Counted from the first letter of the stretch, positions 36,713 to 51,425 are shown. The stretch: 64,000 bases of DNA from Berkelbacteria bacterium GW2011_GWE1_39_12 (GCA_001029735.1 CP011213.1:460613-524612), one strand, 5' to 3'. The notes: generated by a model not told the origin, from the letters alone. Translations and numbers: made by a program.

Positions 36713-36802
36713 GGAGAGGTCGCATAGTGGCCTAGTGCGCGCGCTTGGAAAGCGCGTAAGTCCGCAAGGGCTTCGAGAGTTCGAATCTCTCCCTCTCCGC
36801 CA
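36713..36802 (+). tRNA. tRNA-Ser (anticodon GGA)
   Basis: Cloverleaf read by eye: acceptor GGAGAGG/CCTCTCC, anticodon loop TTGGAAA, long variable arm, T-loop GTTCGAATC, encoded CCA. Confidence 0.85.
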
Positions 36803-42354: not shown

Positions 42355-44073
42355 TTGGACGAAATTGAGCAAATTAAACAGCGAATTGATATTGTCGAAC
42401 TTATTTCAAGTTATTTGACAGTCAAAAAAGCAGGTACGAGCTATCGTAGCTTATGTCCTTTTCATAATGAAAAAACCCCATCAATGATGATCTCGCCAGA
42501 ACGACAAACTTTCAAGTGTTTTGGCTGTAACGAAGGCGGCGATATTTTTGAGTTTGTGATGAAAATGGAAAATTTAAGTTTTCGTGAAGCACTGGAAATG
42601 TTAGCTCAACGAGCCGGTGTGAAGCTCGAGCGCTATAAGCCAAAGAATTCCGAACAGGAAGCGAACAACTCAAATAAAAAAACGCGGCTTTTTCAAATTA
42701 ACGCTTTGTCGGCACAGGTCTTTCACAAAATTTTAATGACCCACTCATCAGCCGAACAAGCCAGAGCTTATTTAAAAAAGCGAAAATTAACCGAACAAAC
42801 ACAAAAAGATTTTTTGATTGGTTATGCACCTTCGTCTCGAGCTTTAAAATCTTTTTTGTTAAAAAGAGGCTTCACGGAAGCTGAAATTCAAGAAGCGGGA
42901 AGTCCGGATCGATTTTATAAAAGAATTATGTTTCCAATTACCGATGTGATGGGTAATGTTCTAGGCTTTACTGGTCGGGTCTTGGAAGCCGATATCCAGC
43001 CAAAATACCTGAATACTCCGGAAACAGTCATTTTTCATAAGGGTCGAATTCTATACAACTTGGTTCGTGCTCGCGGCGAAATCAAAATGAAGAAAGAAAC
43101 TGTTGTGGTTGAAGGCCAGATGGATGTGATTTCGTCTTATCAAGCCGGAGTTCAGAATGTGGTGGCAACTTCCGGTACTGCCCTAACTGAAGATCACCTA
43201 CAAATTCTTTACCGTTATACGCCAAATATTTCTTTTGCTTTTGACGCTGATAGCGCAGGTTTATCGACGGCCAAAAAGGCCTATGAAATGGCCATCGTTC
43301 AAGGTTTTAATGTTAAAATGGTGGAAATAAAGGATTTTAAGGATCCTGGAGAAATGATCGAAAAGGATCCTGACCTTTGGATACAAACTGTTGAAAAGGC
43401 TAAGCCAGTCATAAATTGGTTTTTTGACTTAGCTTTTTCTAAAAAAGACGAACTCACTTCGGTCGACAAAAAAGAAATAGCTAAAGAACTGCTACCAATT
43501 ATTAAAAAGATTCCTGATTCGATAGAGCAGGCTCATTTTGTAGAAATTTTAGCAAAAAAATTAATGCTGCCAGACAAAATCATATTCGAAGCTTTGAACC
43601 GAGTTGCCGGTAAAACTGAAAAAACCTCCAAAAAACCCCAAGAAAGCGAATATTATAAGACAACAATGGAAGAAGTTTTGATTGGCATTTTGGCTTCGAA
43701 AAAAGAAATTTTGGAAGAAATATTGCCAATTGTGTCGATTGATGATTTTGATAATATTTGGTGTAAAACAGTTTACAGTACCCTTTTAAACTGGTATAAT
43801 AATAGTAGAAAAACTGACGATTTAGGAAAATTTCTAACTTCGCATCTCAAACCTCAAGAATATAAAAAGCTTGAGTTGATTTTGATGGAAGTAGAAAAAG
43901 ACTATGCTGAAGAGTCTCTGCCGGCAGCGAAAGATATCGCTTCAAGAATTAAAGAAAACCGGCGTGAAAAATTAAAAGATAAATTTGCTAAAGAAATTGG
44001 TCAAGCCGAAGAAAAAGGCGATAAAGAGAAATTAAAAGAACTAATCAAGGAGTTTCAAGATGCCATCAAATAA
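42355..44073 (+). CDS. dnaG: DNA primase DnaG
   Basis: Zinc ribbon [10 protein letters not shown]...C.GC, TOPRIM domain (EGQMD, DAD). Confidence 0.9.
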
Positions 44074-45259
44074 AAAAAATGATATTGACGTTGCTAGAGC
44101 TAGTCGTGATCGTAATAAAATCGCTCATGATGAAAAAGTTGAACTAAAAGCAGCTAAGAAAAAAGGTAGAATTAAGAAAAAAGAGGAAGTCAAAGTTAAC
44201 TTTCCTGAAGGCATTCAAAACTTGATTGCCAAGGGTCATGAACATGGCTTCGTCACCTTTCAAGAAATAATGCAGGCTTTTAACGAACCAGAAAAAAATC
44301 TGGCTTTGCTTGACGCTCTCTATGAAGAATTTTTAGAACAGGGTATAGATGTCACCCAAGGTAAAAAATTACTTGATGTTCCGGGTGAAGAGGGCGCTGC
44401 AGCAAAAGCCGTTTCCGAACTTAAAGATATTTCTGACGATTCGGTTCGTATGTATTTGCGTGAAATCGGCCGGATTCCATTACTTACTACGGAAGAAGAA
44501 ATTAAGCTCGCCAAAAGAATTGAGGCCGGTGATGAAAACGCTAAACGAAAATTAGCTGAAGCCAACCTTCGTCTAGTCGTTTCAATTGCTAAAAAATATA
44601 TTGGTCGGGGATTAACCTTGTTGGATTTAATCCAAGAAGGAAATACTGGCTTGCTTCGTGCTGTGGAAAAATTCGATTACCATAAAGGATATAAATTTTC
44701 GACGTATGCGACTTGGTGGATTCGTCAGGCTATTACTCGCGCTATTGCTGACCAGGCCAGAACCATTCGTATCCCAGTTCACATGGTTGAAACAATTAAT
44801 AAATTGATTCGTGTTCAACGTCAATTGGTCCAAGACCTTGGTCGTGAACCATTACCTGAAGAAATTGCTTCTGAAATGGGTATTCCGGTTGATAAAGTTG
44901 AGCATATCATTAAAATCTCTCAAGAAACTGTTTCACTGGAAGCACCTGTTGGCGAAGAAGAAGATTCGAAGTTGGGTGATTTCATTGAAGATAAAATTTC
45001 TTTATCTCCTGAAGAGAATGCCATTTATCAATTGATGAAAGGCCATGTTGGCGAATCATTGAACTTTCTTGCCCCAAGAGAACAAAAAATTCTTAAAATG
45101 CGTTTCGGTTTAGATGAAACCGGTCGCACTCATACACTCGAAGAAGTTGGCAAGGAATTTGGTGTGACGCGTGAACGTATCAGACAGATCGAAGCCAAGG
45201 CTTTGCAGAAAATGAAAAAGCACGAGCAGTCTCAAAAGCTTAAAGATTATTTAAAATAA
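44060..45259 (+). CDS. rpoD: RNA polymerase sigma-70 factor RpoD
   Basis: Regions 1.2, 2 ([10 protein letters not shown]...[10 protein letters not shown]), 3 and 4; follows dnaG as in the classic operon. Confidence 0.9.
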
Positions 45260-45577: not shown

Positions 45578-45757
45578 TTTTTCCTTTCAACTGATTAATT
45601 ACTACCTTATAATATGCTTGTCTAGAGATTAAGGGTTTGTGAAAACGAATAAAAAATAATATTTACAAGAGTAAGGAAAAATGTTAAAATAGCTGTGTAG
45701 GTAATATGCGACTTACAACATATTCCCCGGTAGCTCAGCGGTAGAGCAAATCCCTGT

Positions 45758-46325
45758 ACCCTAAAAATCCTCCGTCATTGTGCCATACTAGCGTATAATA
45801 ATTATATGGATAAGAGAACATATAAAGATCGTGCACAATATAACATTCAAGCAGTCGCGAAGCGAAGAAGAAAGATCAAAGCGATGGCAATTGAATACAA
45901 AGGCGGAAAGTGTAGTATCTGTGGTTATAATAAATATGCCGGCGCTTTAGATTTTCACCATATAGACGAATCAACCAAAAAGTTTGATTTATCTACCAAG
46001 GGTCTTACTAGATCATGGGAAAGGACTAAAACCGAGATAGATAAGTGCATATTGGTTTGTGCCAATTGCCACAGAGAAATACACGCTGGATTAGTGCAGC
46101 TTCCCGTGGAAACACGGGTTGAAAAATAAGGTTAATTGCCCCACAAGGGGTCCCGCGTAGCTTTACGCGAAGTGGGATCGGGAAGCCCTGAGTTTTGTTC
46201 AGGGTAATCCGCAGCCAAGCTTCGATGAAAGTCGTTGAAGGTTCAGAGACTATACGCCTTAGGCCGAAACGTAAAGCCGTCGGTTATGAGATAGTCCACC
46301 CTCTTAAGTAATTAGGAGACACGTG
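45758..46325 (+). mobile_element. group I intron in the tRNA anticodon loop, carrying an HNH homing endonuclease ORF
   Basis: Core sequences GTTCAGAGACTATA (P7 5' / R) at 46234-46247 and GAGATAGTCC (P7 3' / S) at 46285-46294. Terminal G immediately before exon 2. ORF sits in the 5' peripheral region. Confidence 0.7.
45806..46129 (+). CDS. HNH homing endonuclease (intron-encoded)
   Basis: CSICG...HH.D......N....CANCHREIH HNH motif; 107 aa. Confidence 0.75.
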   Translation: MDKRTYKDRAQYNIQAVAKRRRKIKAMAIEYKGGKCSICGYNKYAGALDFHHIDESTKKFDLSTKGLTRSWERTKTEIDKCILVCANCHREIHAGLVQLPVETRVEK

Positions 46326-46360
46326 TAAGGATAAGGTCGTCCGTTCGAATCGGACCCGGG

Positions 46361-46469
46361 GAGCCACTAAAAATGATCATCGTCAGATGGTCTTTTTTAG
46401 TGGCCGATGCATCGGAGCCAAGTTATAATTTGCTTTGCAAATTTCCGAATTTACGAAGTAAATATAAAA
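46361..46469 (+). repeat. 109-bp direct repeat (left copy) beginning with the last nucleotides of the tRNA (GAGCCA) and containing the hairpin CCACTAAAAA...TTTTTAGTGG
   Basis: Second copy at 48707-48813, about 85 percent identical and collinear. Confidence 0.65.
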
Positions 46470-49864: not shown

Positions 49865-51036
49865 TGGATAAATTAAATAAAAATATAACCAAACTGTATC
49901 TGCTTGATATTTTTTCAAGTACTCAATTTCAATCCGTTGTGGCGGTATTATTTTTGTTAGCAAAAGGATTTAATCTCGGACAAGTTTTACTCTTTGGCTC
50001 TATTTATGCGGCTGGGGCCTTGGTAAGTGAAATTCCAACCGGCTCAATTAGCGACAAGTATGGACGAAAAACCAGCTTGATTCTTTCTACTCTAATAGAA
50101 CTTCCGGCATTTATAATCGTGATTTTATCTCATTCGTTTGTTCTAATTGGAATAATGTATTTTATTTTTGGAATTGCCGCTTCATTTACTTCCGGCACAG
50201 ACACAGCAATGTTGTACGATACTTTGAAAGGTATCGGCAAAGAAGATGATTTCAAAAAGATTAACGGTAAACTAAAATGGTATGGTGCTTGGGGTGGTGC
50301 AATCGGCGGAATTATCGGTGCATTTTTAGCTAAATATAATTTGGCTTATGCTTGGTGGGCGTGGGCTGGCGTATTGGTAATTATGCTTTTTATCCAACTT
50401 TCGTTAACGGAACCAGCCAAGGCTTATGCTAAGAAAACAAATACATATCTAAAAAATATTGGGCAAAGTTTGAAAGTTGCTTTCAGGGGTGAGGCTAGTT
50501 TTTTCATTCTTTACGCTGCAATAATTTGGTTTTTCTTTTGGCTGGGTTGGTCACTTTGGCAGCCATACTTAAAACTTACTAATTTACCGGTGGTTTATTT
50601 CGGATTCTTTTACGCGGGAGTTAGTTTGATTAGTGGATTTGTTTCCAAACAAGCACATCTTATCGAAAAGAAAATTGGTGTTCGGTTGTCATTATTTCTA
50701 ATCCCAATTTTTCTAGCGATAGCCCTCATTTTAGAATCAAGAATTGTTCTTGTTTTCAGTTTTCTATTTATCGCAATCCAAGCCGTGGCAAGTGGCTATT
50801 TTGGTCCGATCACTGATGACTATGTGAATCATCGTGTTTCGTCAGAAAGTAGAGCAACAGTTTTATCAGTTAAGAATATGATTTCTAGACTAATTTTTAT
50901 GGTATTTTCTCCGTTGGTTGGATATTTCTCTAATCTTTATAGTTTACAAACTGCGCTGATGATGGTTGGAGTAATTCTTATTATCGTCTCAATTATATTT
51001 TTGATTTATTCAAAATCATCATTAAGAAACGCTTAG
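49864..51036 (+). CDS. MFS transporter
   Basis: 12 predicted TM helices; GxxSDKYGRK motif in loop 2-3. Confidence 0.7.
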   Translation: MDKLNKNITKLYLLDIFSSTQFQSVVAVLFLLAKGFNLGQVLLFGSIYAAGALVSEIPTGSISDKYGRKTSLILSTLIELPAFIIVILSHSFVLIGIMYFIFGIAASFTSGTDTAMLYDTLKGIGKEDDFKKINGKLKWYGAWGGAIGGIIGAFLAKYNLAYAWWAWAGVLVIMLFIQLSLTEPAKAYAKKTNTYLKNIGQSLKVAFRGEASFFILYAAIIWFFFWLGWSLWQPYLKLTNLPVVYFGFFYAGVSLISGFVSKQAHLIEKKIGVRLSLFLIPIFLAIALILESRIVLVFSFLFIAIQAVASGYFGPITDDYVNHRVSSESRATVLSVKNMISRLIFMVFSPLVGYFSNLYSLQTALMMVGVILIIVSIIFLIYSKSSLRNA

Positions 51037-51052
51037 CACTGCCAATTTTCTC

Positions 51053-51253
51053 TTAACCTTACCCCAGTACTCATAATCGTCCAGTATTGTTATAATTTTC
51101 TTTGTTAAGAAAATTTCGGAATTTTTCTGAAGGAAAAATATAAGCGAAGCTTGCAACTCGCCGTCGCTCGTTATAAGCGAAGCTTGCAACTCGCCGTCGC
51201 TCGTTATAAGCGAAGCTTGCAACTCGCCGTTGCTCGTTATAAGCGAAGCTTGA
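51053..51253 (+). repeat. intergenic repeat module, then a tandem array of 3.4 copies of the 33-bp unit AAGCGAAGCTTGCAACTCGCCGTCGCTCGTTAT (51143-51253)
   Basis: Unit copies at 51143, 51176 and 51209, plus a partial fourth; a single copy of the unit at 48655-48687. Confidence 0.75.
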
Positions 51254-51425
51254 CGCCCAGCGGCCTTAAATTTTTGACTAACACATAGCTTAACCTGTTT
51301 CAAGTAATTTAGTAAAAATTAATAGGAAAAATTTTCAATAAGGGTAAAAATATTTTCAAGTTTGATCTATGTTAAATACAGTGGTAAATTATCGCCGTTT
51401 TTTAGTAAAGTAATCAATATACTAC

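Follow-up and report, generated by a model that had tools for sequence, protein, structure and literature searches.

Group I introns at one particular site of tRNA-Asn(GUU), between positions 35 and 36 of the anticodon loop, have been described in Patescibacteria, and the element analysed here is one of them. Our subject is a stretch of 64,000 nt from Berkelbacteria bacterium GW2011_GWE1_39_12 (GCA_001029735.1, CP011213.1:460613-524612); this whole stretch is referred to as the window, and positions are counted from its first nucleotide. At 45724-46366, it contains a tRNA-Asn(GUU) gene interrupted by a 568-nt group I intron, within which lies an open reading frame (ORF) for a predicted HNH nuclease.

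In a survey of 95 complete Patescibacteria genomes, Nakagawa et al. (mSystems 2026, PMC13011429; preprint July 2025) reported that 15 tRNA-Asn(GUU) genes carry a group I intron at 35/36. Four Asn introns at this site, which are longer than 500 bp, encode HNH (PF01844) endonucleases. For the Asn intron of GCA_016700035.1, self-splicing in vitro depended on guanosine triphosphate, sequencing of the ligated tRNA gave exact 35/36 ligation, and a mutant with the terminal guanosine (omega-G) changed to C was blocked; a tRNA-Leu intron served as positive control (PMC13011429). The paper also describes how ARAGORN and tFind, due to a 2-nt ambiguity, confuse Asn with Thr, and credits this miscall as well as the type name Asn.4Ug to Williams (bioRxiv 2020, 10.1101/2020.01.27.920355), who raised the number of interrupted tRNA types in bacteria from 4 to 21. 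The locus of the window itself is listed, with boundaries that agree with ours, in Table S3 of PMC13011429 (GCA_001029735.1, plus strand, Asn(GTT) 35/36, tRNA 506336-506978, intron 506370-506937, 568 nt) under the class UBA1384, which is the GTDB name for Berkelbacteria (PMC8172020). The sequence given there is identical to that of the window over the about 400 nt compared, and the best intron-less match to the window's tRNA is a tRNA-Asn (84% over 75 nt; PMC13011429). Locus, intron class and HNH ORFs are already published, and our finding is a confirmation, not a new one; a first-pass annotation, made from the sequence of the window, had expected an ORF-bearing intron in such a tRNA to be unusual, which does not hold.

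The introns of Azoarcus tRNA-Ile and of Anabaena/Nostoc tRNA-Leu(UAA) belong to subgroup IC3, lie at other loop positions and carry no ORF. They share with the window's intron a small core, a guide sequence directly 5' of the paired region P2, and GNRA tetraloops on P2 and P9. The phage HNH endonucleases I-HmuI, I-TevIII and I-PfoP3I are encoded in group I introns of protein-coding genes, and several of them nick. These enzymes are larger and possess extra DNA-binding modules, whereas the protein of the window consists of 107 residues and is encoded in a tRNA gene. The cyanobacterial tRNA-fMet(CAU) introns are likewise group I introns of the anticodon loop with a homing endonuclease gene of their own; I-Ssp6803I is the PD-(D/E)XK homing endonuclease of such an intron. 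They differ from the window's intron in the tRNA, the site (33/34), the nuclease family (PD-(D/E)XK) and the phylum, and PF11645 cases are contained in PMC13011429. Unlike the IC3 introns named above, the Patescibacteria Asn introns are classed as IA (PMC13011429). With the latter, the window's intron has in common the phylum, the tRNA, the site, the U(-1)/omega-G boundaries, the Asn/Thr ambiguity, and the HNH ORF found in long copies; the in vitro assay was performed with a different, ORF-less Asn intron (PMC13011429), and there is no difference in kind.

Exons, splice boundaries and ribozyme core

According to our reading, to which we assign a probability of about 0.92, a group I intron of 568 nt, predicted to be self-splicing and harbouring an HNH gene, splits the single tRNA-Asn(GUU) gene of Candidatus Berkelbacteria, a bacterium of the candidate phyla radiation (CPR, Patescibacteria) with a small genome, between positions 35 and 36. 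The elements of exons and core are:

45724..45757, plus strand: tRNA-Asn(GUU) exon 1, with acceptor 5' strand, D arm, anticodon stem 5' strand and the loop nucleotides C32 U33 G34 U35
45758..46325, plus strand: group I intron, 568 nt, between tRNA positions 35 and 36
45754..45759, plus strand: P1 5' strand CUGU/AC, spanning the 5' splice site (slash) and pairing with 46094-46099
46094..46099, plus strand: internal guide sequence GUGCAG, the 3' strand of P1; GCAG is near-invariant directly 5' of P2 in the 64 introns introduced below
46103..46118, plus strand: P2 hairpin CCCGUG-GAAA-CACGGG, from covariation and the minimum free energy (MFE) fold
46127..46133, plus strand: P3 5' strand UAAGGUU, pairing with 46255-46261 and including the stop codon of the ORF
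46179..46211, plus strand: P4 (46179-46182/46208-46211) enclosing P5 (46185-46191/46199-46205), from covariation and the MFE fold
46214..46242, plus strand: P6 and P6a hairpin, P6a being present in the MFE fold
46248..46296, plus strand: P7 (46248-46252/46292-46296, GACUA/UAGUC), around the P3 3' strand (46255-46261) and P8
46263-46267/46280-46284, plus strand: P8, which covaries
46301..46318, plus strand: P9 hairpin CUCUUAA-GUAA-UUAGGAG, from covariation at most positions and the MFE fold
46325, plus strand: terminal guanosine (omega-G), a G directly before TAA in 64/64 loci
46326..46366, plus strand: tRNA-Asn exon 2, with U36 A37 A38, anticodon stem 3' strand, variable loop and T arm; the rest consists of acceptor 3' strand, G73 and the encoded CCA

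The two tRNA halves can be read directly from the sequence: the acceptor strands TCCCCGG (45724-45730) and CCGGGGA (46356-46362) are complementary, and the latter is followed by G73 and CCA up to position 46366. When introns were allowed, ARAGORN placed a tRNA-Asn(gtt) at 45724-46366, interrupted after position 35 of the anticodon loop by an intron of 568 nt, i(35,568); for the joined exons, it gave a canonical cloverleaf with the anticodon GUU. In default mode, no tRNA was found at the locus, and the sole call in the whole window was a tRNA-Ser(GGA) at 36713-36802. Both the complementary halves with their G discriminator and encoded CCA and the status as the only copy in the window had been proposed in the first-pass annotation and were borne out: a search of the 64 kb with ARAGORN (introns allowed) and Rfam gave no second tRNA-Asn and no second group I intron. 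Four independent metagenome assemblies contain the pre-tRNA with 100% identity; therefore, the locus is not an assembly artefact. The contig is also present in several groundwater metagenomes.

Both an Asn and a Thr join of the exons result in a cloverleaf according to ARAGORN; therefore, a comparison with relatives was used to decide between them. A scan with one genome per species revealed relatives of the ORF in 266 genomes, from which 80 loci were retrieved. According to ARAGORN, 63 of these contain a tRNA that has the same outer boundaries and is interrupted by 499-712 nt including the ORF; together with the window's precursor, they constitute the 64 aligned introns behind all junction and pairing counts. 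The junction follows one rule in 64/64 cases: exon 1 ends in CUGU, the intron in G, and exon 2 begins with UAA. The final G, which had also been noted in the first-pass annotation, is G46325 in the window. In contrast to it, the two bases preceding the terminal intron G vary (TG 58, CG 5, AG 1; n = 64). The Asn join was called tRNA-Asn(GTT) in 64/64. The spliced tRNA of the window is identical to the uninterrupted tRNA-Asn gene of locus L049 at 63/73 positions, and the anticodon arm is the same in both. Its body contains U1-A72 and G73, the latter being a feature of bacterial tRNA-Asn.

Rfam Intron_gpI (RF00028) matches positions 46096-46318 over the full model length with 55.5 bits (gathering score 50, E 2.3e-11), and the core consensus elements GTTCAGAGACTATA and GAGATAGTCC are found at 46241-46254 and 46288-46297, respectively. 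This is in agreement with the group I assignment of the first-pass annotation, whose R/S-like elements correspond to the P7 region (46248..46296). Pair types were counted at window coordinates, based on an alignment of the 3' 262 nt of the 64 introns. In P1, the U(-1).G wobble (45757/46096) occurs in 60/62 relatives, and intron position +1 covaries with the internal guide sequence (G-C 37, A-U 16, G.U 4). P2 is paired in 57-62/64 introns per position with many compensatory changes, and P3 covaries, e.g. U-A/C-G and A-U/G-C/U-A/C-G. Rfam placed the 5' strand of P3 inside an insertion specific to this copy, where the pairs are non-canonical; this placement was rejected, as covariation locates P3 at 46127-46133/46255-46261. 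The pairs of P4 covary among G-C, C-G, A-U and U-A types (61-64/64 paired), and in P6 the pairs 46214/46242 and 46215/46241 are formed in 61-64/64 with C-G/G-C exchange. As P7 does not vary (63-64/64 introns), it is silent for or against pairing. An MFE fold of 46094-46325 recovered these helices with z = -3.8, and 0/200 shuffles were as stable. The first-pass annotation had left it to a P3-P9 fold to decide on the intron: the fold could be built, and P3, P4, P8 and P9 covary.

By analogy with the related Asn intron that self-splices in vitro, splicing of the window copy can be envisaged as follows. The gene would be transcribed as a 643-nt precursor, in which the core 46094-46325 would fold into P2-P9 and GUGCAG would pair with CUGU/AC to form P1, with the U.G wobble at the splice site. 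Free guanosine would attack after U45757; then, G46325 would enter the same site and the exons would be ligated, giving the loop C-U-G-U-U-A-A with the anticodon GUU. The predicted ligated tRNA comprises 75 nt and reads ...CCCUGUUAAGG....

The HNH reading frame in the P1 loop

Two features precede the guide sequence within the intron:

45791..45799, plus strand: internal -10-like element GCGTATAAT, with 6 nt between its end and the start codon of the ORF
45806..46129, plus strand: HNH nuclease ORF of 107 residues in the P1 loop, from the ORF list and Pfam

The ORF, which was already part of the first-pass annotation, is intact, and its product is 100% identical to the NCBI entry 'HNH endonuclease [Candidatus Berkelbacteria bacterium]'. 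A profile search assigned it to PF01844, which is matched by 32/40 members of the family at E<=0.01 (best 4e-6). Among 40 HNH sequences, 27 positions are invariant, including C36, C39, H51, H52, C85, N87 and C88 (CxxC/HH/CANCH); H89 and H93 are nearly so. Differences relative to the window's ORF accumulate at third codon positions (3357 versus 1606 and 1362), and the HNH protein is therefore under purifying selection. With regard to the beta-beta-alpha-metal fold, an AlphaFold model is confident, with a predicted local distance difference test score (pLDDT) of 88.3, and its top fold matches in the PDB are weak but all HNH nucleases: CBASS Cap5, the Cas9 HNH domain, the Gme HNH nicking enzyme and T4 Endo VII. 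Among proteins of solved structure, the McrA HNH domain comes closest in sequence, a weak match with E 0.013; a search of the ORF product against NCBIfam gave no meaningful match. Because of the Pfam match, the invariant residues, the codon-position bias, the model, and the fold and sequence matches, the assignment as a putative HNH nuclease gene is sound.

The last 36 nt of the ORF (46094-46129, 12 codons) serve a double purpose, as they also constitute the guide sequence, the P2 hairpin and the first bases of P3, into which the stop codon TAA (46127-46129) falls. For the near-invariant residues Q98 and P100, constraints on the RNA are probably as important as those on the protein, and translation through 46094-46129 would compete with ribozyme folding. 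In the main Results of PMC13011429 and in that part of its supplement which is considered here, neither the position of the ORF in the P1 loop nor its overlap with guide sequence, P2 and P3 was found. In at least 32/60 related introns, a TGnTATAMT motif (TGGTATACT or TGATATAAT), resembling an extended -10 element, is located at the equivalent place, 6-10 nt before the start, and there is no obvious Shine-Dalgarno sequence. This suggests that the -10-like element is an internal promoter, from which a nearly leaderless mRNA without exon 1 would be transcribed. As an aside, the intron ORFs of L020 and L079 have a non-ATG or upstream start.

Given the position of the ORF and its patchy distribution, the HNH protein is most likely a homing endonuclease. 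The patchiness consists of ORF-less introns at the same site, free-standing copies, and premature stops in the intron-borne ORFs of L032 (about 1495-1557) and L034 (about 1495-1710); such stops are as expected for the decay phase in the life cycle of homing endonucleases. We propose that the P1 loop houses the gene of a predicted zinc-bound HNH nuclease, probably with its own -10 element. The nuclease would nick or cut intron-less tRNA-Asn genes, and repair would copy the intron, the ORF or both.

The explanation that competes best with this proposal assumes that the protein does not act, or has ceased to act, as a homing endonuclease and has another role linked to tRNA-Asn, for example as an aid in intron folding or in a host function. 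It would explain why conservation is unusually high for a selfish gene, with the 27 invariant positions and an identity of 59-85% in the best-matching segment across the 80 loci and many classes of the CPR, and why the HNH gene is always linked to tRNA-Asn, uninterrupted genes included. We nevertheless regard it as unlikely: the residues for catalysis and zinc binding in an active HNH nuclease do not vary, some copies contain premature stops, and a mobile nuclease gene would be consistent with both the patchy presence and the movement between intron and flank. Moreover, the ORF is dispensable, since many Asn 35/36 introns lack it, among them the one that self-splices in vitro (PMC13011429).

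Points against the reading and competing explanations of the locus

Several observations weigh against the reading of a self-splicing intron with a homing nuclease gene. A search for P10, in which the first bases of exon 2 would pair with those 5' of the guide sequence, gave only a 3-bp match UAA/UUA with a 2-nt offset, and P10 is not claimed. An insertion of 40 nt between P3 and P4 is absent from the other 63 aligned introns, and the Rfam score of 55.5 bits has to be compared with 101.6 in the nearest relative, L005. Concerning the protein, the Pfam score for PF01844 is marginal (21.7 versus a cut-off of 21.4 bits), and the top PDB fold matches are weak, with E >= 0.06 and a template modelling (TM) score of about 0.4. 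Finally, L049, L061 and L050, where the HNH gene lies beside an uninterrupted tRNA-Asn, are not accounted for by a simple model in which the nuclease cuts every intron-less allele.

The low Rfam score and the misplaced P3 are caused by the insertion:

46139..46178, plus strand: insertion of about 40 nt between P3 and P4, forming two small hairpins in the MFE fold

With it, the P3-P4 spacer is 45 nt long in the window versus 5 nt in 60/64 introns. The insertion is identical in 4 other assemblies. A different, longer insertion is present at the same P3-P4 site in L001, a second Berkelbacteria contig (about 1185-1240). As a separate observation on this contig of a metagenome-assembled genome (JAENIV010000087.1), P8 runs directly into the T loop of exon 2 at about 1290-1345; the locus lacks P7-3', P9, omega-G and some 18 nt at the beginning of exon 2, and there is no Rfam intron match. 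Either the gene is dead or the short contig was misassembled.

Subgroup IA is characterised by extra P7.1/P7.2 hairpins between P7 and P3. In the window copy, there are no such hairpins, as the gap between the 5' strand of P7 and the 3' strand of P3 is 2 nt, a value found only in the window and 6 relatives; in 57/64 introns it amounts to 10-50 nt. The Patescibacteria tRNA introns were assigned to IA by means of covariance models (PMC13011429). Neither the P3-P4 insertion nor the absence of P7.1/P7.2-like hairpins in this copy was found in the main Results of that paper or the above-mentioned part of its supplement.

Alternatively, the tRNA gene could be dead, its intron no longer splicing, e.g. 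due to the 40-nt insertion, and tRNA-Asn could be supplied from elsewhere. The fact that the insertion is unique to the window copy, the low Rfam score, and the incomplete core and exon 2 that L001 seems to have would fit this explanation, which we nonetheless judge very improbable: the core helices and both splice-site nucleotides are all intact, the insertion folds as self-contained hairpins, and the locus is identical in several assemblies. Furthermore, tRNA-Asn is indispensable, and tRNAscan-SE found no other gene for it in the complete genome (Table S2, PMC13011429); a separate intact copy, which the first-pass annotation had considered as a sign of a pseudogene, does not appear there. 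In this table, the third amino-acid column gives for GCA_001029735.1 the values tRNAscan-SE 0, ARAGORN 1 and tFind 0 (PMC13011429). We take this column to be Asn, based on the alphabetical order and the agreement with Table 1; read in this way, it indicates that the interrupted gene is the only tRNA-Asn of the complete genome. The maturation of an essential single-copy tRNA gene would then depend on a ribozyme. Standard tRNA finders miss the locus or report Thr, which skews tRNA inventories and genome-completeness estimates for CPR; the point on skewed CPR inventories has already been made in the literature.

The reading as a tRNA-Thr(UGU) with the intron at 33/34 (exon 1 end 45755, exon 2 start 46324) is close to refuted, although this join has a valid cloverleaf, a U before the 5' splice site and G46323 as intron end, ARAGORN calls alternate between Asn(gtt) and Thr(tgt) among the relatives (Thr for 24/80 loci), and tFind labels the window locus Thr (PMC13011429): with the boundary shifted by 2 nt, the terminal G is retained in 34/64 introns only, the variable bases before omega-G would give differing anticodons, U45755 pairs with A46098 whereas the U.G wobble of P1 is formed by U45757, U1-A72, G73 and the similarity to an uninterrupted tRNA-Asn contradict Thr, and the sequenced ligation product of a related intron is Asn (PMC13011429). 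We therefore rejected the Thr reading on the junction rule, the P1 register and the similarity to intact tRNA-Asn; the first-pass annotation had named both, 'Asn (or Thr)', and it is Asn that stands.

Free-standing HNH copies and surroundings of the locus

At least 266 species-level genomes encode relatives of the HNH protein, and these relatives make up more than 3,400 protein clusters. In 14/80 loci, an intact HNH gene is located outside the tRNA. Nine of these genes lie upstream of the 5' end of a tRNA-Asn with an ORF-less 35/36 intron of 190-244 nt (L002, L004, L013, L046, L048, L057, L060, L072 and L073); in L046, about 10 nt at the end of the ORF are shared with the start of the tRNA, and in the remaining eight loci the two are separated by 10-59 nt. 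In L038 and L042, the HNH gene is situated downstream of a tRNA-Asn with an ORF-less intron, and in L049, L061 and L050 it is found beside an uninterrupted tRNA-Asn. Rfam supports 8/9 of the short introns of the upstream class, both introns of the downstream class (56-81 bits) and all three intact tRNAs; for L004, L046 and L060, there was no Rfam match at the gathering score. Free-standing and intron-borne copies are interspersed in the protein clustering; for example, the free-standing copy of L002 and the intron-borne one of L003 are 86% identical, and their tRNA exons are identical.

These relatives, though not the window itself, resemble cases of collaborative homing, in which a free-standing endonuclease is combined with an ORF-less intron at the same site, and which has been proposed as a step before intron invasion (PMC3984707). 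The known cases lie in phage protein-coding genes. Tentatively, and with somewhat less than even confidence, we regard the window's element as the possible end state of a series that leads from a free-standing gene beside an uninterrupted tRNA-Asn via a free-standing gene beside a tRNA-Asn with an ORF-less 35/36 intron to a gene inside the P1 loop of that intron. If this were true, cellular genomes would contain a natural series for an origin of mobile group I introns by collaborative homing followed by intron invasion, a course so far known from phage protein-coding genes. The free-standing and intron-borne copies are a lead on how endonuclease genes enter introns. In the main Results and the considered part of the supplement of PMC13011429, no HNH gene lying free beside tRNA-Asn was found, and the term 'free-standing' is absent from its main text.

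HNH-bearing tRNA-Asn 35/36 introns were also observed in records not labelled Patescibacteria. L079 (OY970063.1, 'delta proteobacterium') belongs to a 2.92-Mb chromosome, which is too large for CPR, and lies beside a rubrerythrin-like gene. L076 is a 1.52-Mb contig, L075 is titled Elusimicrobia, and L063 is titled Limisphaerales. For several loci titled 'Gammaproteobacteria' or 'Pseudomonadales', the records resemble CPR bins with a wrong label. With the series proposed above, a spread beyond Patescibacteria would also be indicated; in the complete genomes of PMC13011429, 35/36 introns of subgroup IA bearing a homing endonuclease gene were found in Patescibacteria only.

Two further features flank the tRNA gene:

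45662..45690, plus strand: promoter-like site TTTACA-17 nt-TAAAAT with TG before the -10 element, 34 nt upstream of the tRNA 5' end
46375..46400, plus strand: terminator-like hairpin and T-run, 9 nt past CCA

The promoter-like site is a match to the consensus pattern only, and the regional count of such sites is not above the shuffled expectation; the terminator-like hairpin, which stems from a consensus scan, is likewise a pattern match only. The neighbouring genes code for DnaG, RpoD and a pterin-4a-carbinolamine dehydratase-like protein; therefore, the locus belongs to a bacterial chromosome. The conserved dnaG-rpoD pairing sits immediately upstream of the intron-bearing tRNA locus, and the dnaG-like ORF (42355-44073) overlaps the rpoD-like ORF (44060-45259) by 14 nt (44060-44073). 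Farther downstream, at 51139-51252, an apparently intergenic 33-bp tandem repeat comprises 3.5 copies with 98% matches; it gives rise to a spurious repetitive ORF on the minus strand at 51022-51303.

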